A stretch of 64,000 nt of DNA. Source: Mobula hypostoma (Eukaryota). Shown piece by piece: positions 4,885-54,590 of the stretch. Position numbers and translations under genes: made by a program. Positions within the stretch are counted from its first letter, which is position 1. Each line of letters starts with the position of its first letter. Where the stretch lies: positions 64,234,001 through 64,298,000 of the forward strand of contig NC_086097.1 in NCBI RefSeq assembly GCF_963921235.1. Direction: 5' to 3'. Under the pieces are notes generated by a model. The model did not search any database, had not been told where the DNA came from, and saw nothing but the letters and a program-made list of their open reading frames with translations.

Positions 4885-6210
4885 CATTGCTGGAATGTAG
4901 GGCAAAAAATACACTGTTTTTAAAATTCAGCAGGTCAGCAGCATCCATGAAGGAGAAGGGTTGGCTGACTTTTCAGGTTGAGACGCTGCATCAGGACTGA
5001 GAGTTTACATAGAAAATAGCCAGTACAGTCGGCGCTCCTTATCCGCGAGTTCCGCATGCGCGAATTCAACCAACCGCAAATTGAGAAAACCCGGAAGTGC
5101 TCTTCCAGCATTTGCTGTTCAAGCATGTACAGACTTTTTTTTTCTTGTCATTTTTCCCTGAACAATGCAGTATAACAACTATTTTGCATAGCATTTACAT
5201 TATATTAGGTAATCTAGAGATGATTTAAAGTATACGGGAGGATGTGCGTAGGTTATCGTGGATCGGGATCGAAAAAAACCCAGAAGTTCTCTTATTAAGT
5301 AAGTGGGAACAGGTACATCTGTTATTATTTAGCGTCAGTTAGTCAAACATTTGTCTTAGTATATAGTATACATTTTACCTTTCTATGCATATAAAGTACT
5401 TAAGAAATGTATGTTTTAGCGCCGGGCTCGGGAACGCAAGTTTCCAAGTTCGATCCAGTGACAGAGTGCTCCCGAGCACGTTCTTCGTCCGTGCCGGGTT
5501 GATGTGGAGGATCAAAAACCCCAAACCCCAATAATTTAACCACTGTGTTGCTTAGTAATAATTGTAGCTTTAATCGGTCAGGGCCTTTCTCATTTTATCC
5601 TTTAAAATTGTTCTGATCATTGACCGACTGTAGCCTAACGCTTTTCCAACGACCAATGGCATTTCACCTCTTTCTGATCACTTTATTATTTCCACTTTAT
5701 TTTCAACCGTGATCATAATTATTTACGTGAACAGAAACACTGCAGATTCAGAGCTCCGCCGCCGGGTCCTAATGTCCACCGCACTGAGACAGGTTAAATA
5801 AGGTCCGGGGTTCTGCTGGATCCTAAGGTCCACCACATTGAGACAGGCTGAATAAGGGATTTGAGCATCAGCGTTTTTTCGTATCCGCGAAGGGTCACTG
5901 AATCAATCCCTTGTGAATAAGGAGGGCCAACTGTATATAGAAGTGAGAGTGCGGGGTAAGACAGAGTTTGGTAGGTGATTATGTTTCCACCAGTCACCAA
6001 GCCTTTGTTGCTGCATCCCTCCTCCTCCCCCTCCCAGTCCATCACACCACCCCCATTCTCCACCTCATCTGGTTCCATCAATCATCTCACTTCTATACAA
6101 TATGGCAACTATCCCTCTAAGCTGACAGTCCTGATGCAGTGCCTTGATAGGAAACATTAACCATCCTTTTGCCTCCACTGATGCTCCTCGGCTCACTGAT
6201 TGCTTTAGTA
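4885..6210. mobile_element. Degenerate Penelope pLTR-derived repeat in two inverted halves, interrupted by the Tigger element at 5026-5933
   Basis: Decayed hammerhead-like motifs facing opposite ways: minus ~4965-5000 (gtcCTGATGcag..GAAA) and plus ~6127-6160. Confidence 0.55.
5026..5933. mobile_element. TcMar-Tigger non-autonomous element, MER2-like
   Basis: TIRs cagtcggcgctccttatcc / gaataaggagggccaactg flanked by TA on both sides (5024-5025, 5934-5935). Confidence 0.85.
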
Positions 6211-8234: not shown

Positions 8235-8502
8235 ACAACACACACAAAATGCTGGAGGAACGCAGCAAACCAGGCAGCATCTATAGGAAGAAGTACAATC
8301 GACATTTTGGGTCGAGATCTTGAAGTGATAGTAAGAGATTTGAAAGTGAGAGTCTCCCCCTTTCTTTCTCTCTAGGCCTTCCGTCCCACGATCCTCCCCC
8401 TTCTCCAGCTCTGTATCCCTTTTGCCAATCAACTTTCCAGCTCTTAGCTTCATTCCTCCCCCTCCTGTCTTCTATCATTTCAGATCTCCACCTCCCCCTC
8501 CC
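8235..8502. mobile_element. Penelope pLTR-derived repeat with internal inversion
   Basis: 8235-8350 matches the family tail on minus; 8352-8502 matches the adjacent purine/pyrimidine block on plus. Confidence 0.7.
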
Positions 8503-8955
8503 ATGACATGGAACTGAGGCACTGATTAAACAGGGCCTTAACGATGATAATGTTGGAATTACTATGTCACACTCCAGTGGGTACAGAAATAGGATATTGC
8601 AATAGAATCCACAACCACAAAGATAGTGTGGAAGTGTCAGTTTTAGATTTTTGTGGAAGGTAGAATTGGATATCAGCAGGACCAGAACTTAATATTCTCA
8701 CAAGGAAGTGTGCTGGTATCACCAGGGATATTTTAAATCAACTTGATGGGAGGGAAGGGGCAGATGGTCCCAGCTTCAGAAGAAACAAATACAGAATGTG
8801 CAAGTTGATTAAGTAAATGATCCTGATAGCTAACGCAAGGAAATAAAGAGAATAAACTAAGAACAGCATAGACAATGCAAGAATGACATCATAGCCATTA
8901 CTGAAGAATTGTCAAAGAAAGGTGTGATTAGCATCTCAATGTCTCTTCTTACTGA

Positions 8956-9869: not shown

Positions 9870-11471
9870 TGAGTTTTCAGATAGACAGATATAGAATGTG
9901 TTGCAGTTAAAGAAACAAATAAAGCTGAGAAGAGGTATAATATGTACTGTGATTGCATTTTACACCCAAATATAATACGGTGAACGTTTCATCAAGGAGA
10001 AATATCAAGATAATTCTTGCCCAAGATCCATCAACTTCTTGGTACAAAAGAAAGCACTATCATAATGGATAGAAAACTGATGGGCATACGAGAATTGGAG
10101 AATACAGTACTGCCTGAACTAATCAGAAAGACTTGCAGGCAGGTTTGGTCTGGAGATTGGCAGAGTGCTTCTGCCATGACACAGCTTATTACATGGTCTC
10201 TGCCTCAAAGAAATTGAATTTCCTGGTATGGAGACAGCAAATCAATCAGGTAGATAAGATCTTTTACAAATGAGAATTTTCATTCAGAAGATGTGGATAG
10301 ACTGTAAATGGCAATGCTGGATGGCATTCATTGTCTATCCCTTACTGCCTTCCCTATCCCTATCAAAATAATTGAGTAATGTATACGTCATACTCTTAAG
10401 ATTGGTTGATTTTCCTCTTTGAAGGGTATGAGCAAACTTGCAACGAGGCGAGTATTTTAAAATTCCTAGTTTCTGCTACCATGTTGGATTTGAATCACAT
10501 TCTTGGATCAATGGTCCAGATCTTTGGCTGCTTGTAAAATTACTCAACCATTATGCTGCATACTTTAAGCAGCAATTCAAATGATTGCATGATATTGATG
10601 ATGGTACACAATGCTGACAAATAATAAAGTCTGCTTTCAGATAAATCTGTTCTACTTGTTTGAAAGTATGAGTGAACATAATACCACTGCAGTGGGCTCA
10701 TTTACATGTAATGTTTTGAACATGTCAAAAGAACCTTAATAAAGTAGTGAGGAACCATAATTTTGTCCTTAACTTTTAAAACTACAAAAAAGACATGAAC
10801 CAATTATTAACAATCAGAAATAAATCATATTTGTTTCTTGAGACAAGAAGTATGTGGGGGAACCTAAATTAGACCTTTTTTTCCCACAGTCATAGTCAAA
10901 CCATAGTCATAGTTTCAGGGCCATGTTAAAGGACAAGAAAGAGATTAGGCCACACAGCTGTTCATGTCTTTGCTGCCATCCAATAAGATGATGCATACTG
11001 TTCTTTCAAAACATTCTCTTTTTATATACATACATGCACCTGTTTTCAGATCATTGGTGGTGGGGGGGAATGGAGAAAGAAAGATGGGGCCTCTGTTTGG
11101 TCATTCTACACCTATCACATTCACGTCATGACAAAATATTGCTTACAAAAAAAGGAACAAACTACCTGAGCAACTCTGAATGATATAAGCAAGTTTGTCT
11201 GCTGTGGAATGAAGGCTGAATCTTTGAGAAGTGAAATCATTCATAATTTGGTCTTGGAAATTTTGGGAAAGCTGTAAATTTTTCTTAGTTCTCTTTTGTA
11301 AATTCCCTGCAGATAAATGTTTTTATTTCTGAGATCCACATGAAATATACTGTACTTCTGGCTTCATAACACCAGTGCTATGGAGGAAAATAAATAGCTC
11401 AAAAATGTTCCAGCTGCATTGTTAAGGTGTGCAAATGCCACAGTATTAATTCAGTTCTAAGAAAGCATTTA

Positions 11472-11651
<180 letters not shown>

Positions 11652-11995
11652 CTACTCAAAACAAAACATGAAACAAAGATAAGAAATTTATAGATTATAA
11701 TACAAATATCAATACTTTCGTCTTAACATGGGCAGTCATTCTTTTTTTTCTGCACTATATCAGAGAAGGAGGTGAATATGATGCTTGGCCACAAATGAAA
11801 ATACATGGAAAATGTTCTTTAATTAAAACATTCTTTATATTGATTTTAACTGTTTTTTTTTGTGTTTTAATACAAGAACTAACAATATGTTGGGTACTTG
11901 GCTTTTCTCAGTTACAGTGCAGTGCAGTTAAAGGGAGTGAAGGCAAGTATCACAGGCAACCACCCCTTGAAGAGGTTTCTAACACTATAGACGTG

Positions 11996-12431
11996 TCCAC
12001 GCTGACAATCAACACAGGCGCACCTAAGGATATGTGCTTAGCTCATTCCTATACTTTCTCTACACTCATGACTGTATGGCTAGGCACAGCTCAATTCTCA
12101 TCTGTAAATTCACTGATGACATCACAGTCGTTAGAAGAATCTCAGATGGCGAGGAGGTGGTGTACTGGAGCACTCAATCGGCTGGATGAGTGGTGTCAGA
12201 ACAACAATCTTGCACTCAATGTCAGCTACACCAAGGAATTGATTGCGGACTTCCGGAAGGGGAAGTTGGGAGGAAACACCCCAGTCCTCAACGTTGGAAA
12301 CAGTGAGCAGCTTCAATTACCTGGCAATCAACATGTCAGAGGATTATTCCTGAACCCAACATATTGATCCAATCATGAAGAAGGCACGCCAGCCGCTATA
12401 CTTCATTAGGAGTTTGAGAGATTTAATACGT
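11996..12431 (+). mobile_element. Rex-Babar-like LINE fragment (continues at ~14800-15218 after Penelope insertions)
   Basis: LTINTGAP..., WCQNNNLALNVS.TKELI.DFRK motifs. Confidence 0.75.
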
Positions 12432-12526
12432 AAACACGAGGAATTCTGCAATGCTGGAAATTCAAGCAACACACATCAAAGTTGCTGGTGAATGCAGCAG
12501 GCCAGGCAGCATCTCTTGGAAGAGGT

Positions 12527-12565
12527 ACAGTCGACGTTTCGGGCTGAGACCCTTCGTCAGGACTA
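12527..12565 (-). ncRNA. Minimal type I hammerhead ribozyme, intact core
   Basis: UAGUC-CUGACGA-A-GGG-UCUCAG-CCC-GAAA-C-GUC^GACUG: conserved core boxes, 3-bp stem II, 5-bp stem I, palindromic ACGU stem III, GUC cleavage triplet. Confidence 0.8.
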
Positions 12566-13863
12566 ACTGAAGGAAGAGCTAGTAAGAGATTTGAAAGTGG
12601 GAGGGGGAGGGGAGATCCAAAATGATAGGAGAAGACAGGAGGGGGAGGGATGGAGCCAAGAGCTGGACAGGTGACTGGCAAAAGGGATATGAGAGGATCA
12701 TGGGACAGGAGGCCCAGGGAGAAGGAAAAGGGGGAGGGGGGAAGAAAAGCCAGAGGATGGGCAAGGGGTATAGTCAGAGGGACAGAGGGAGAAAAAGGAG
12801 AGAGAGAGAGAGAAAAAGAATGTGTGTTTATAAACAACGGATGGGGTATGAGGGGGAGGTGGGGCATTAGCAGAAGTTAGGGAAGCCAATGTTCATGCCA
12901 TCAGGTTGGAGGCTACCCAGACGGAATATAAGGTGTTGTTCCTCCAACCTTAGTGTGGCTTCATCTTTACAGTAGAGGAGGCCGTGGGTAGACATATCAG
13001 AATGGGAATGGGATGTGGAATTAAAATGTGTGGCCACTGGGAGATCCTGCTTTCTCTGGTGGACAGAGCATAGGTGTTCAGCAAAACGATCTTCCAGTCT
13101 GTGTTGGGTCTCGCCAATATATAGAAGGCCGCATCGGAAGCACCGGATGCAGTATAATCACCCCAGCCGACTCACAGGTGAAGTGTTGCCTCACCTGAAA
13201 GGACTGTCTGGGGCCCTTTCTGCAGGGATCGCTTCCTACATGACCCCCGTGTCCATTCGTCCCCCCCCATCCCTCCCCACTGATCTCCCTCCTGGTACTT
13301 ATCCTTGTAAGCGGAACAAGTGCTACACATGCCCTTACACTTCCTCCCTTACCACCATTCAGGGCCTCTGTCCGCCAGAGAAAGCAGGATCTCCCAGTGG
13401 CCACACATTTTAATTCCACGTCCCATTCCCATTCTGATATATCTATCCACGGCCTCCTCTACTGTAAAGGTGAAGCCACATTCAGGTTGGAGGAACAACA
13501 CCTTATATTCCGTCTGGGTAGCCTCCAACCTGATGGCATGAACACTGACTTCTCTATCTTCCGCTATGCCCCACCGCCCCCTCATACCCCATCCGTTATT
13601 TATCTATATACACACATTCTTTCTCTCTCCCTCTCTCCTTTTTCTTCCTCTGTCCCTCTGACTATACCCCTTGCCCATCCTCTGGGTTTCCCCCCCTCCC
13701 CCTTTTCCTTCTCCCTGGGCCTCCTGTCCCATGATCCTCTCATATCCCTTTTGCCAATCACCTGTCCAGCTCTTGGCTCCATCCCTCCCCCTCCTGTCTT
13801 CTCCTTATCATTTTGGATCTCCCCCTCCCCCTCTCAAATCACTTACTAGCTCTTCCTTCAGTT

Positions 13864-13900
13864 CGTCCTGACGAAGGGTCTCGGCCCGAAACGCCGACTG
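13864..13900 (+). ncRNA. Minimal hammerhead ribozyme copy with mutated cleavage triplet
   Basis: GUC-CUGACGA-A-GGG-UCUCGG-CCC-GAAA-C-GCC-GACUG; GUC changed to GCC. Confidence 0.65.
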
Positions 13901-14029
13901 TACCTCTTCCTAGAAATGCTGCCTGGCCTGCTGCGTTCACCAGTAACTTTGATGTGTGTTGGGAGATTTAGTAAGTCACTTACTTAATGAGTTATCAAAT
14001 CTCCTCAAACTGACCAGGGAACTGATAGT

Positions 14030-14790
14030 GATTTAAAAGATTGAGACCATGTGAAGTGTCACAAATGTACGTGGGAAGGGACTGAACCATAGGGGACAAA
14101 TTAGAGTCGAGGTATGCAGACAAAAGTTCATTTGGGTAGGAGTAGGCAGAAACAATGGGTCTTCTTGACAGTCAGTTTTGTGGATTTTGTGCAGGAGGTA
14201 GAAATGTACAGTGCAGGGTAAGGGAACTACTAGGTTGGTGACAGTGGATGGGAGAGCTCCAGAATTGATGGGCTGGTGATTGTGTGAGAAATAATGGCCT
14301 GATGCTTCACAGTGGGGTCCCTTTCAAGGGGTATTTAAGAGGAAGTGTCTGAGAGTTGCTGTCTAGCCTCAGCAAGATAGAGATCAGTCTACCAGTCTAT
14401 AACAGCATTCTGTTGTCTGTGGTTTTGATGGAGAGGGTGGGTTTGGTGTGGTAAGAGTGGAGGGCAGTCCTTTCAGAGAGCGTGAGGTTCGAATAGGAGA
14501 AAGGAGTACAGAAGTTTAGATGGTTGATATCTCACCGGCACTCAGTTATGAAGAGTCCCACAGCAGGAAACCCCCAACTTCTCACTTCATCCTCATTCAA
14601 ACAGCTTCCTCCTCACTTATCACTTACCAACTTGTACTCCTTCACCACCGCCCGCACCCCTCCCCAACTGCACCTTCTTCACTCCTGCTTTCTAGTCTGG
14701 ATGAGGAGTCTTGGCCCAAAATACTGACTGCTTATTCTTCTCCAGAGGTGCTGCCAGACCTGCTGAGTTCCTCCAGCATTGTGTGTGTGC
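14030..14790. mobile_element. Older Penelope-like fragment (RT N-terminal region on minus, pLTR tail on plus)
   Basis: gaagtgtcacaaa.. shared with the 2800 region; decayed hammerhead-like tail at ~14695-14735. Confidence 0.55.
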
Positions 14791-15282
14791 TGCTCTGGTT
14801 TGCAGGCTCCAATGCACAAGATCAAAAGAGAGGCTGCAGAGTTGTAGACTCAGCTTACTCCATAATAGGCACAAGCCTCCCAGACATTGAGGACATCTTC
14901 AAACGGCGATGCCTCAAGAATGTGACATCCGTCATTAAGGGCCCTCAACATGGACACGTCTTTTCATTACCACCATCAAAGAGGTAGTACACGAGCCTGA
15001 GGACACACACTCAATGTTTTAGGAACAGCTTCTTGCCCTCTGTGCTCATGGACCATTCAGAAACATGAACACCATCTTGCTATTCCTCTTTTGCACTGTT
15101 TATTTTTTATTGTAACTTGTAGCAATTTATGTCCTGCACTGTACGGCTGCCCCAAAACTGAAAAACAGTGTCATGACATGGTGCAAGTCAGTGATAATAA
15201 ACCTGTTTCTGACTTTGAAGTCAGGTGCAAAAAGCAGCTATTATTTTCTCCATTCCACTCGGAATCACACTGCAATAACAAG

Positions 15283-15947
15283 CAGGAGGAGGAGAAGATG
15301 GTGGCGCGACGCAGCGCGCGCGTCCTCTCCGGTGAATGATATCTGTAATCTGTCAAGTAGGGTACTGTGCACAATTCTGATTTGATAGAGACAGACGTGA
15401 GAGTACGGAGGAACATCTGGAGAAACTTCTGAAATGCCCGCTTCGCTGCCCCTGCTACTGTGTGGTGACCAGAATCTCTGGAGCAGAAGGCCCCGAATCC
15501 TTGGCTTTGCTGGTTTTGGCAGCTGGGGCGAAGTAGAAGGCGCTCAGGAGGCTGTATCGGAGGGGCTGGTCGGAGGCTCGAAGTTTTCGTACGGGCTCAG
15601 AGTCGGCTGTGGTCGGGTGCTGCCAATGCATCGGCAGTTGTTGATGCCCGGAGGTTTATGGCAGGGAGTTTCTCCTTTTTGCCGCCTGCTATCGGGGACT
15701 CGGGAGTCGATTGGGACTTGAGATTTTTTCTTACCGTGCCCATGGTCTGTTCTTTATCAAATTATGGTATTGCTTTGCACTGCTGCAACTATATGTTATA
15801 ATTATGTGGTTCTGTCAGTGTTAGTCTTTGGTTTGTCCTGTTTTTCTGTGATATCACTCTGGAGGAACATTGTATCATTTCTTAATGCATGTATGCATTT
15901 CTAAATGACAATAAAAGAGGACTGAGTGTTCTCATAATCTAATCTAA
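15283..15947 (+). mobile_element. Non-autonomous non-LTR element (LINE 5'UTR plus 3' tail)
   Basis: CpG-rich head GGAGAAGATGGTGGCGCG; AATAAA and (aatct)n tail. Confidence 0.55.
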
Positions 15948-16960
15948 TATTTTAAGTCTGAGTTGTGACTGAATATTATATGAAGATTTCTCTACTGTGT
16001 GACTGAAAAAAAAACACTTAGAACATAAAACATAAAACATTTAAGCACAATCTGGTAAACATGCCTATCAAAAATATCCAGCAAAAACTTTTCATCTGCG
16101 GCTGTCAACCAGCAAAAAAAGAAATGAAGATGCACCACCACACATCAAATCGTGTTAGATTACTGAACATCAGCATACAAGTTTTCTCAATGAATGGTCA
16201 AACAGTGCAATGTTTTGTACAAATTGCTTTATGCATGACAGGTCAAGAAGAGGCAAATGGTGGTGGTTGGGTGGAAGATGGATGGGACTGTGATGGCAGT
16301 AAATGGTTATTAATGATCGTGTATCTATTCTATCCAAGCAACATTCTATATAGCCTTGGAGAGATTTGTGTGTGGCTAATTGTGATTGTGGTGTTCTGTT
16401 ACTCATGGTAAGTGTGTTAACAATTTTAAATATTTCAAATTTAAAAAAATGTTCACAGCATTCTAAATGGAGCTTCATTGGTGCCACCCAAAAGCATTAT
16501 GCTTGGTCAGATTCTTACGTTGATAGAAGAAATGCAGCAATGAAAGTACAATGAACTAAGTAATTGATCTGTAAATATTTTCAAACATTTCAAAATCCAG
16601 GAACTAACTTTCTTTCCAATAGGAACTAAACTAGAAGTTAAAATTTTCAGGGTGAAGTGTAGGAACAAGTAGCAATGAACTTAGGACCATGTTAATGTTG
16701 CAGATGCAGTATATTAATACCCAAAAAGTAATAATGAAAATAATTCATTTTTTGCAAATAAATTTTTTGTGAAGTCTAAGACTAGCAACAGCAAAAAAAA
16801 CAGCTGAAAATCTACAATTTTAGAAGTATATTACAATAGAAACAAGGCACCACCAATAAATATCAATTATGAAATTGGATAATGTACTAGATATTCAATT
16901 AAAAAAATATGGTGCCTGTAAACTAAAACTGAAGCTCGGAGAAAAATAAACATATTTTTA

Positions 16961-17197
<237 letters not shown>

Positions 17198-39984: not shown

Positions 39985-41840
39985 AACTCACTCTTCTACA
40001 CTCTTTCCAGTTTAATAACCGAGCAAGCAAAAGTTTATACAGCACTCTCACGTGTAGTCTGAACAATCTCCTTCACAACCAACGCCACTGCATCACAACT
40101 TTTATACTCAACACCTTGACTGATGACAGCGAGCATGCCAAAAGCCTTTATCACTGTGTCTACCTGTGACTCTACTTCCAGTGAATTATGTCCTGATCGA
40201 GAAGTTGCAAAACCTGGGCCTCTGTACCTCCCTCTGCAATTGGATCCTCTACTTCCTAATCGGAAGACCACAATCTGTGCGGATTGGTCATAACATATCC
40301 TCCTCACTGACGATCAACACTGGCGCACCTCAGGGGTGTGTGCTTAGTCCTCTACTTTCTTCTCGATATACACATGACTGTGTGGCTCGGTACAGCTCAA
40401 ATACCACCTATAAATTTGCTGATGATACAACCATTGTTGGCAGAATCTCAGGTGGTAACGAAAGGGCGTACAGGAGTGAGATATGCCAACTAGTGGAATG
40501 ATGTTGCAGCAACAACTTGGCACTTAAAGTCAGTAAGACAAAAGAGCTGATTGTGGACTTCCAGAAGGGTAAGAGGAAGGAACACATACCAATCCTCAGA
40601 GAGATCAGAAGTGGAGAGAGTGAGCAGTTTCAAGTTCCTGGGTGTCAAGATCTCTGAGGATCTAACCTGGTCCCAACATATCGATGTAGTTATAAAGGTG
40701 GCAAGACAGCAGCCTTTCATTAGGAATTCAAAGAGATTTGGCATGTCAACAAATACACTCAAAAACTTCTAGATATACCGTGAAGAGCATTCTGACAGGC
40801 TGCATCACTGTCTGGTATAGGGCGGGCGGGGGGGGGGGGCACAGGACCAAAAAAAGCTGTAGAGGGTTGTAAATCTAGACAGCTCCATCTTGGGTACTAG
40901 CCTACAAACTACCCAGGACATCTTCAGCGAGCGGTGTCTCAGAAAGGCAGCGTCCATTATTAAGGACCTCCAGCACCCAGGGCATGCCCTTTTCTCACTG
41001 TTACCATCAGGGAGGAGGTACAGAAGCCTGAAGGCACACACTCAGCGATTCAGGAACAGCTTCTTCCCCTCTGCCATCCGATTCCTAAATGGACATTGAA
41101 CCCTTGGACACTAGCTCACTTTTTTGAATACACTGTATTTCTGCTCATGTTTTTAAAATCTATTCAATATACGTATACTGTAATTGATTTACTTATTTCT
41201 TATTATTTTCTACTCTTCTATATTATGTTATGCATTGAACATGGCAGTGATAATAAACCTGATTCTGATTCTCTGTTCTTTGACACTCCATCTAGGCGCG
41301 ACTGTTCACTTTAAAAATTCTTACTGGGTTTTCACTTTCCAAACATCACACTTAACTGAATGAAACTCTATTTGCCATCACTTGCCCACTTATTCAGCTA
41401 ATCAAGAACCCCCTATAATTTTGATGATCTTCTTCATTGTCCACTATACAAACTATTTTAGTGTCATCTGCAAACTTACCATGTTTTGTACATTCTTATC
41501 CAAATTATTAATATGAATGACAAAAAGTAACAGAACTGAGGCACACCACTATTCGCAGGCCTCAAGTCCGCGAATCAACCTTTGACCATCAAGCCAAATT
41601 GTGTATCTGATTAGGCAGCACTCTCAGGATACCATGCGATCTAAACTTCCAAAGCAGCTCATCACATGGAATCATATCAAAGTCCTCACTAAAGTACTTA
41701 TTAAACCATGTCTACTGTCCTGGTTTCATCAAATTTCTTGGTTACCTAATCAAATATTTCAATCAAGTTTGTATGATCTCCCAGGCACAAAGCCATGTGT
41801 CATTACAGATATACGCATATCTTATCCTTCAGAATCCTCT
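39985..41840 (-). mobile_element. Decayed CR1-like LINE split by the Rex insertion at 40192-41271
   Basis: KAFGMLA.ISQGVEYKS (ORF 40035..40307) and KFADDT-type sequence near 41460. Confidence 0.65.
40192..41271 (+). mobile_element. Rex-Babar-like LINE, 5'-truncated
   Basis: [38 protein letters not shown]; (ctgatt)n tail. Confidence 0.88.
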
Positions 41841-50106: not shown

Positions 50107-50248
50107 GCAACACACACAAAATGCTGGAGGAGCTCAGCAGGCCAGGCAGCAACTATAGAAAAGAGTTAACAGTCAACGATTCAGGCCAAGACTCTTCATC
50201 AGGACTGGAAAGAAAGATGAGAAGTCAATGCAAGAAGGTGGGGGGAGA
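50107..50248 (-). mobile_element. Penelope pLTR tail with near-intact hammerhead
   Basis: Minus strand reads AGUC-CUGAUGA-AGAGUCUUGGCCU-GAAU-C-GUU-GACU (GAAA changed to GAAU). Confidence 0.7.
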
Positions 50249-52278: not shown

Positions 52279-54590
52279 GTCAGGCTTCGGTACCTCCTAC
52301 TTGATAGTAACAATGAGAAAAGGGCATGCCCTGGGTGCTGGGGGTCCTTAATAATGGACGCTGACTTTCTGAGACTCTGCTCCTTGAAGACATCCTGGGT
52401 ACTTTGAAAGCTAGTACCCAAGATGAAGCCAACTAAATTTATGACCCTCTGCAGCTTCTTCTGGTCCTGTGAAGTAGCAAACCACCCCCCACCCCATACC
52501 AGACAGAGATGCAGCCTGTCAGAATGCTCTCCACAGTTCATCCATAGAGGCTTTTGAGGGTTTTTGTTGACATACCATAATGAAGTATAGTTGCTGTCTT
52601 GCCTTCTTTATAACTGCACCGATATGTTGGGACCAGGTTAGGTCCTTAGAGATCTTGACATCCAGGACCTTGAAACTGTTCACTCTTTCCACTTCTGATC
52701 CCTCTATGAGGATTGGTATGTGTTTCTTCGTCTTACCCTTCCTGAGGTCCACAATCAGCCTTTTCGACTTACTGACGTTGAGTGCCAGGTTGTTGCTGCA
52801 ACACCACTAAATTACTTGGTATATCTCATTCCTGTGCGCCCTCTTGTCTCCACCTGAGATTTTACCAATAATGGTTGTATCATCAGCAAATTTATAGATG
52901 GTATTTGAGCTATGCCTAGCCACACAGTCATGGGTATAGAGAGAGTAGAGCAGTGGACTAAGCACACACCCCTGAGGTGCACCAGTGTTGATTGTCAGCG
53001 AGCAAGAGATATTATCACCAATCCACACAGATTGTGGTCAAGGATCCAATTGCAGAGGGAGGTACAGAGGCCCAGGTTCTGCAACTTCTCAATCAGGATT
53101 GTGGGAATGATGGTATTAATGCTAAGCTAAAGTCGATGAACAGCATCATGACATAGGTGTTCATATTGTGCAGGTGGTCTAAGGCCGTGTGAAGAGCCAT
53201 TGAGAACACATCTGCTGTCAATCTATTGTGGCAATAGGCAAATTGCAGCGGGTCCAGGTCCTTGCTGAGGCAGGAGTTCAGTCTAGTCATGACCAACCTC
53301 TCAAAGCATTTCATCACTGTAGATGTAAGTGCTACTGGGTGATAAGTCATTAAGGCAGCTCACATTGTTCTTAGGCACTGGTATAATTGTTGCCTTTTTC
53401 AAGCAAGTGGGAACTTCTGCCCATAGCAGTGAAAGGTTGAAAATGTCCTTGAATACTCCCACTAGTTGGTTGGCACAAATTTTCAGAACCTTACCAGGTA
53501 CTCCGTCGGGGCCTTCCACCTTGCGAGGTTCACCCTCTTTAAAGACAGCCTAACATCAGCCTCTGAGACACAGGTCACAGGGTCATCAGGTGCAGCAGGG
53601 ATCCTCACAGCTGTAGTTGTGTTCTCCCTTTCAAATCGGGCATAGAAGGCGTTGAGTTCATCTGGTAGTGAAGCATTGCTGCCATTCATGCTATTGGGTT
53701 TCACTTTGTAGGAAGTAATGTCTTGCAAACCCTGCCAGAGTTGTCGTACATCTGATGTCACCTCCAACCTCGTTCAAAATTGTCTCTTTGCCCTTGAAAT
53801 AGCCCTCTGCAAGTCATACCTGGTTTTCTGGTACAGACCTGGGTTGCCAGACTTGAATGCCACAGATCTAGTCTTAGCAGCCAATATACCTCTTGGTTCA
53901 TCCACGGCTTTTGGTTTGGTAATGTATAGCAAATCTTTATAGGCACACACTCATCCACACAGGTTTTAATGAAGTTGGTTAGAACTGCATATTCATCCAG
54001 ATTCAAAGATGAATCCCTGAATATGGTCCAGATCACTGATTCAAAGCAGTCCTGTAAGCGCTCTTGTGCTTTCCTTGTCCATATCTTCTTGGTTCTCATT
54101 ACTAGTGCTGCAGTCTTTAGTCTCTGCCTATACTCGGGGAGTAGAAGTAGAGCCAAGTGATCAGACTTTCCAAAGTGAGGGCATGGAATTGCATAGTAGG
54201 CATTCTTGATGGTGGTGTGACAATAGTCCAGTGTGTTGTTTCTTCTGGTATTGCAAGCGATCTGTTGATGGTAAGTGTTTAGTGAATTTTTCAGGCTGGC
54301 CTGGTGAAAATCCTCCAGAACGATGATGAAGGCGTTAGGGTGCGCTGTTTCGTGCATGTTGATCCCATCGCTGGGATCATCTAAAGCCTGATTGACATTG
54401 GTCTGAGATGGAATGTATACCACTATCAAAATGATCATGGAAATCTCCCATGGTAGGTAAAATGGACGACACATAACTGCGAGATATTCCAGGCCTGGTG
54501 AGCAGAATTGGGACACCACTGATATATTTGTGCACCAAGAGGGGTTGATCATGAGGCATACTCCTCCACCTTCACTTTTGAGAGAATCTA
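52279..54590 (-). mobile_element. Rex-Babar-like LINE, long copy (endonuclease plus RT, frameshifted)
   Basis: ORFs 53758..54552 (CRPFYLP, GKSDH), 53483..53767, 53093..53350 and 52807..53028 (QGCVLSP, KFADDTT). Confidence 0.9.

Follow-up and report, generated by a model that had tools for sequence, protein, structure and literature searches.

An intact hammerhead motif predicted to be locked in the hairpin of a head-to-head Penelope-like element insertion in a RALGAPA1 intron

The host gene and the inverted unit

The window analysed here, a stretch of 64,000 nucleotides from contig NC_086097.1 of Mobula hypostoma, carries RALGAPA1 on its minus strand, and one intron of this gene holds two inverted arms, one of which contains a hammerhead motif (Table 1). 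The exon upstream of this intron encodes sequence with 93% identity to vertebrate RALGAPA1 proteins and a clearly lower similarity to human alpha-2, and a tblastn search with chicken RALGAPA1 gave 35 exon-like matches, all on the minus strand and extending from 7663 to 178644 in window-based coordinates. The exon downstream of the motif has a Pfam match, and its GND asparagine is, as we assume from knowledge of the Rap-GAP family, the catalytic residue. The asparagine thumb of Rap-GAP is described in PMC12311180. The motif lies 875 nt before the acceptor of the intron, in agreement with the original prediction, which had placed it on the RALGAPA1 transcript strand about 0.9 kb upstream of this exon, and the nearest splice site is about 0.8 kb away from one arm and about 3.0 kb away from the other.

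Alignment of the arms resulted in 563 identities, 27 mismatches, and 18 gap columns, with a spacer of 297 nt between them, which confirms the predicted pair of reverse-complement arms of about 600 bp at a distance of about 300 bp. The arms are the 3' ends of an endonuclease-containing Penelope-like element (PLE). A long sister copy, L050, has an open frame of 776 codons (L050:3018-5345) in which a match to the Pfam family RVT_1 (E=1.3e-5) is followed by one to GIY-YIG (E=1.1e-3), both under the curated cut-offs, and it is through this copy that the reverse transcriptase and endonuclease of such PLEs are seen in a single ORF. The PLE pieces in the window are 81-100% identical in protein sequence to this frame, the GIY-YIG remnant being 87% identical. 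With L050 as the reference, the left arm runs from position 1837 through to the end and on into the tail, and the right arm is made up of 1696-1842 and 1985-2576; because the arms map to these adjoining segments, the spacer is PLE coding sequence itself. The linker CKRNKCYTC (CX2-5CxxC, Zn-finger-like), encoded both in spacer part A and in L050, points to a family of the Neptune type, although Nematis shares the motif; in the available part of PMC8557442, such a linker between reverse transcriptase and endonuclease marks Neptune and is common to Nematis.

Table 1. Features of the inverted unit and its surroundings (window positions unless a locus is given)
Feature	Position	Strand	Remarks
RALGAPA1 intron, 5,321 nt, between two Rap-GAP domain exons	11652..16972	-	
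Left target-site duplication, 14 bp	12418..12431		12/14 identical to 13963-13976; inside older LINE fragment
PLE tail, about 35 nt	12432..12466	-	left arm only
Left arm: PLE 3' end (endonuclease C-terminus, 3' UTR, hammerhead)	12467..13068	-	sense to host pre-mRNA
Minimal type-I hammerhead motif, core intact	12527..12565	-	predicted scissile bond 12533/12532; 34-nt pattern with 7,812 exact matches
GIY-YIG endonuclease remnant	12867..13217	-	frameshift near 13156-13163; Pfam GIY-YIG E=8e-4, below curated cut-off
Spacer part B: PLE segment that only the left arm retains	13069..13217	-	reference positions 1837-1984
Spacer part A: PLE segment with CxxxxCxxC linker	13218..13366	+	reference 1696-1842; joins right arm across a deletion of about 142 nt
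Right arm: PLE 3' end without tail	13366..13961	+	antisense in host pre-mRNA, transcribed first
Mirror hammerhead	13863..13901	+	U16.1>C (GUC>GCC), broken stem I pair, loop change
Right target-site duplication	13963..13976		12/14 identical to 12418-12431; run X13 contig match begins at 13963
Older, decayed PLE unit adjoining the insertion	13977..14793		reverse transcriptase remnant, minus 14582-14013; hammerhead-like motif, plus 14693-14731
Units with a twin-priming-like footprint	13217-13366 (window); L029:2395-2538; L036:3246-3384; L100:858-1173		

The older unit that adjoins the insertion has 42% amino-acid identity to the L050 frame, and its hammerhead-like motif has 13 differences in 39 nt. 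It is apparently also arranged head to head; the young element inserted at its edge, and both lie within one LINE. Further older PLE-end fragments are found at 8236-8503, 2213-2250, 50108-50205, and 4961-4999, one pair of them inverted and some with decayed hammerhead-like motifs. Inverted LINE copies at 40266-41031 and 52280-53039, about 85% complementary and 11-12 kb apart, flank several RALGAPA1 exons and could pair in the pre-mRNA.

The hammerhead motif and its mirror copy

On the strand of the RALGAPA1 pre-mRNA, the sequence from 12565 to 12527 is an intact minimal type-I hammerhead with all core nucleotides present, composed of a 5-bp stem I with one wobble, CUGACGA, an additional A following A9, stem II, GAAA, and CGUC, with a GUC triplet and a palindromic, loop-less ACGU stem III. 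The core, helices I and II, the palindromic loop-less helix III, and the extra nucleotide after A9 are the features of minimal hammerheads, and the earlier account of the sequence, core, triplet, and stem III proved accurate. The cleavage site falls within the motif as had been proposed, but its position is corrected from 12531/12532 to a predicted scissile bond at 12533/12532, which would leave a new 5' end at 12532. The mirror copy on the plus strand, likewise foreseen, extends one nucleotide further on each side than first given (13863-13901) and differs from the motif at three positions, one of them the change of GUC to GCC. The mirror copy is on a strand that the host does not read as a ribozyme, and the only effect of its GCC is to turn one U-A pair into U-G.

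The exact intact 34-nt pattern of the motif occurs 7,812 times in the genome (3,896 plus, 3,916 minus) compared with 0 times for the reversed control, and the motif is therefore not a chance occurrence; the GUC>GCC variant pattern of the mirror has 98 genomic copies. The covariance-model check that had been suggested did not recover the motif: an Rfam scan of 10000-17000 at E<=10 returned two chance matches and no hammerhead, a miss that is probably owed to the missing stem III. Overall, the PLE origin and the assignment to the minimal, dimer-type hammerheads are supported.

Insertion history

The unit is a single, lineage-restricted insertion in which two 5'-truncated PLE 3' ends are joined head to head; a tail is present on one side only, and the target-site duplication measures 14 bp. 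In organism D, contig 10 of run X14 joins 12274-12425 to 13986-14365, give or take 12 nt, and thus represents the empty site. The contig match of organism C begins at the right duplication (13963), and the insertion would be present in organism B according to contigs at the two junctions, which contain only 30 and 25 element letters, below the 31-letter bridging rule of the tool. The arms have diverged from each other by 4.6%, a value between the flank divergence to B (2.0%) and that to C and D (7.1%), which would fit neutral change since an insertion that took place between the B and the C/D splits. Inverted copies, a tail, and a target-site duplication are typical of PLEs in the available parts of PMC3846280 and PMC8557442, and the unit displays an inverted 5'-truncated copy, a tail on one end only, and a target-site duplication together with an empty site.

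Abundance of the family and of the head-to-head layout

The head-to-head arrangement turned out to be a common insertion product of this PLE family. Full head-to-head units were present at 32 of 94 loci anchored on intact matches, and some inversion was present at 45; these loci hold the first 100 listed intact matches, from the first 42 Mb of contig C1, and are not a random sample. The counts are lower bounds, as a unit split by a later insertion (L002) was scored as partial. Six of the 98 loci with the GCC variant were examined, of which two have full head-to-head units and four have some inversion. Among the 35 full units, the one in the window included, 33 have a tail on one arm and none on the other, and 22 reach a duplication score of at least 8, compared with 0 of 175 mismatched flank pairs. 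Because a polymerase entering a head-to-head unit from either side meets the antisense arm first, the order in which the antisense arm is transcribed before the hammerhead is automatic.

The combination of an intact hammerhead with a broken mirror was considered as a distinguishing property and rejected, since the partner fails the strict test in 29 of 33 intact-anchored units. These failures are mostly due to a CpG or subfamily change at C11.1, and with the loose test the core is kept in 47 of 59 non-anchor copies. The exact pairing of intact and GCC copies is not unique to the window either, as it recurs in a second head-to-head unit at L102 (G000:C1:35265321-35265677). With respect to subfamilies, U at 11.1 is linked to C at the last base in 13 of the 59 copies, an amplified lineage with G-U at the conserved 10.1-11.1 pair, and U at 11.1 occurs alone in 17 further copies, likely by CpG decay. 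The middle of a short head-to-head unit at L110:4181-4584 consists of pieces from far upstream (reference 411-520 and 547-629), showing that long template jumps take place.

Within the RALGAPA1 coding span, the motif has seven matches in sense and six in antisense orientation, of which four and three, respectively, are core-intact. Besides the motif at 12527, three sense-strand copies are therefore core-intact, and one of these, at 156685, is uncaged: it has no upstream antisense arm within 18 kb, carries G10.1-U11.1, and is followed by an antisense copy after about 5 kb. Of the sense copies in the gene, those at 12527 and 94594 are strictly canonical, and both are caged (2/2 against a base rate of 34%, p=0.12). 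The long sister copy in sense orientation, L050:2620-5345 (minus), is located in another RALGAPA1 intron and has an uncaged hammerhead with G10.1-U11.1.

Predicted folding of the transcript

In the predicted fold, 570 of the 602 nucleotides of the left arm pair with the right arm, as expected of the long dsRNA that had been proposed, and 37 of the 39 motif nucleotides are among those paired to the mirror arm, which supports the suggestion that the first-transcribed antisense arm masks the hammerhead. Forcing the hammerhead stems was predicted to cost 62.7 kcal/mol in the full hairpin versus 5.2 kcal/mol without the antisense arm, with nearest-neighbour energies that leave out tertiary contacts and proteins. 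For the lone 39-mer, a fold that pairs the core with the cleavage site is favoured (-13.5 versus -8.1), and comparison with shuffled sequences gave z=-1.93, nine of 200 shuffles being as good. A dimer in which both hammerheads form reaches only -15.1, compared with -30.2 for the best cofold, and the minimal hammerhead at 12527 is a lone one, with no partner for a dimer in cis. Contigs of run X9, one of several runs guessed to be RNA, show a spectrum of changes like that of the DNA runs; the arms are swamped there by sister copies, and the low-depth contigs at the unique intron flanks are possibly DNA.

Selection on the ribozyme or the hairpin

Single changes were compared in matched sequence contexts across the genomic copies, and core-killing changes were not rarer than tolerated ones: U16.1>C was found 98 times versus 109 times for U>C in the loop (p=0.49), A6>G 55 times versus 43 times for A>G in stem I (p=0.27), and the pooled counts are 153 versus 152, giving no signal of selection on the copies. 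Neither do the mismatches between the arms favour pairing, as the arm transitions, read on the pre-mRNA strand, comprise nine G-U-compatible pairs and ten A-C pairs. In 73 non-anchor copies, all from this single young PLE family, nine stem pairs were examined and showed no compensatory changes, as is expected of neutrally decaying copies.

The core was also compared with its flanks in 59 non-anchor copies, that is, the 85 found less 26 that do not extend 5' of the motif. Non-CpG changes affect 5 of 529 core sites versus 142 of 3,406 flank sites (p=6e-5), and 66 of 2,993 flank sites once seven polymorphic flank columns are dropped (p=0.06); a cruder count, in which the copies had been filtered on the motif itself and aligned without gaps, both sources of bias, gave 3.2% versus 5.9% (p=0.002). 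We read the lower rate in the core as selection on the active master lineage, on which the family depends, combined with an A-rich core; selection at the level of the inserted copies is possible too, but fits less well. The expectation that the core would be conserved across family copies holds in part. It counts against neutral decay that the copy on the host strand is the fully intact one and the core change is found in its mirror, and that both strictly canonical sense copies in the gene are caged. According to the available part of a 2026 preprint (10.64898/2026.07.22.740005), moreover, retrozymes are under-represented in Xenopus introns, which makes some cost of genic hammerhead elements plausible.

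Comparison with published systems

Complex PLE insertions described in the available parts of PMC3846280 and PMC8557442 share with the window unit the head-to-head arrangement, the tail on one arm, the flanking duplication, a GIY-YIG remnant, and a hammerhead in the terminal repeat, and their one-sided tail of 30-40 bp compares with about 35 nt in the window. In the window unit, by contrast, each arm is a short truncated end that lacks a full ORF, a deletion in one arm has its far breakpoint at the 5' end of the other, and the duplication measures 14 bp versus 8-10 bp in the rotifer examples of these sources. Opposed minimal hammerheads 100-700 bp apart have been known since 2014, according to the available part of PMC4209133 (Cervera and De la Pena 2014), in which metazoan minimal hammerheads show no cleavage as monomers and little as dimers. 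With these metazoan PLE hammerheads the motif shares the full core, the nucleotide between 9 and 10.1, G10.1-C11.1, a short helix I, and the palindromic, loop-less helix III, whereas its helix II is shorter, with 3 bp and a U-G pair versus 7-8 bp in Schistosoma. The host group of the window motif is not named in the available part of that paper, and a literature search for PLE hammerheads in cartilaginous hosts found none, most subscription papers and the species supplements of PMC4209133 being outside its scope.

The Poseidon PLE of Anolis (PAc, PMC11167929) is a vertebrate PLE with a hammerhead, as is the element in the window. Its reverse transcription has two starts, which explain the tail, and both target strands are extended, which would give head-to-head arms as in the window. 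This lizard hammerhead needed the protein of the element, and no RNA-seq ends were found at the cut site. PAc differs in belonging to Poseidon, whereas the family in the window has the CxxxxCxxC linker of Neptune/Nematis. The origin of the inverted arm is debated between self-priming on an antisense template (available part of PMC3846280) and both-strand extension (PMC11167929). For twin priming in Penelope, a literature search judged by title gave nothing on the question of inverted units, and a search for A-to-I editing of intronic inverted Penelope repeats gave only a general review.

Host-domesticated intronic ribozymes, among them CPEB3 and the HH9 and HH10 hammerheads of amniotes, lie on the sense strand upstream of an exon, are low-copy and conserved, and are active as monomers. 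The window motif resembles them, as CPEB3 is presented in the available part of PMC10919898, in that it is an intronic ribozyme motif in sense orientation and precedes an exon. It differs in being high-copy, lineage-restricted, and without stem III, and the empty site in organism D, the 7,812 copies, and the 153 versus 152 variants are not those of a domesticated ribozyme.

Origin of the unit and alternative explanations

The unit is very probably one head-to-head, 5'-truncated insertion of an abundant PLE. Its hammerhead is probably an inactive passenger that decays neutrally, shut inside a long hairpin according to the predicted fold. In the proposed mechanism, the PLE protein would cut the target with a stagger of about 14 nt, and both target ends would prime reverse transcription at two start sites close to the RNA's 3' end; priming at two different sites would explain why only one arm has a tail. 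The two truncated cDNAs would then be joined, one template jump dropping about 142 nt from the right arm. Upon transcription of RALGAPA1, the antisense arm would be made first and a duplex of about 570 bp would zip through the hammerhead, and the intron would likely be spliced out normally with the unit inside, perhaps A-to-I edited as a by-product. The far end of the template jump (1842) is 5 nt from the 5' end of the other arm (1837) in reference positions. This footprint resembles L1 twin priming, and both cDNAs could have come from one RNA. Among 11 units with an inverted piece that ends internally, which were picked by hand and have no null for comparison, this piece ends within 5-25 nt of the truncation of the other arm in four.

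It is scarcely credible that the inverted pair arose from two separate insertions, a later rearrangement, or an assembly artefact. Changes after the insertion could account for the internal deletion and the split spacer, and no listed contig spans the whole unit, but a single duplication flanks both arms and the empty site removes them together, and a difference of 4.6% between the arms means that they are not a collapsed or mirrored read. The hairpin could instead matter as dsRNA, edited by ADAR, diced to help silence the PLE family, or slightly affecting splicing, with the hammerhead irrelevant. Transcription of about one-third of the sampled family loci would yield such hairpins, and the extensive pairing of the left arm in the predicted fold is what this role calls for; the balance of nine to ten among the arm mismatches, which do not favour pairing, and the position of both arms within one intron, about 0.8 kb and 3.0 kb away from its ends, nevertheless make it improbable. 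Incidental editing is compatible with the neutral-passenger reading, and dsRNA becomes a rival explanation only if its role is selected.

The conditionally self-cleaving intron of the original prediction is not supported, and we consider it unlikely. In this scenario, the hairpin would hold the hammerhead off until it is unwound or edited, and cleavage with a trans partner and the PLE protein would abort the RALGAPA1 transcript before splicing of the catalytic exon. The layout is shared by 32 of 94 family insertions, the insertion is absent in organism D, and the family copies give no selection signal. Although the core is intact on the host strand 875 nt before the acceptor, there is no dimer partner in cis, and the strong predicted cage, which would provide the switch, is also a barrier of 62.7 kcal/mol. 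Both strictly canonical sense copies in RALGAPA1 are caged, yet the same pre-mRNA tolerates the sense copy at 156685, which is uncaged and keeps its core, albeit with G10.1-U11.1. An intronic ribozyme that affects its host gene has a precedent in CPEB3 (available part of PMC10919898), whereas published monomers of minimal hammerheads did not cleave (available parts of PMC4209133 and PMC11167929). Taking both sides into account, we hold abortive cleavage in this intron to be highly improbable.

A further idea, for which we see little chance, is that the layout acts as a safety catch for host genes such as RALGAPA1: upon expression of PLE RNA and protein, thousands of intronic sense hammerheads could be cut in trans, whereas a head-to-head insertion, in which synthesis of the antisense arm always comes first, would be protected, and intact sense copies in introns would be enriched for caged ones.

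Significance

By itself the locus is of little weight, being one of thousands of Penelope remnants with a layout that has already been described. The PLE family as a whole provides thousands of dated hammerhead copies with which to ask, by comparing sense with antisense and caged with uncaged copies, whether PLE ribozymes ever cut host pre-mRNA, and the junctions of its units may record how the inverted arm arises. If the safety catch were true, it would link a known insertion layout to the tolerance of hosts for ribozyme-bearing transposons.
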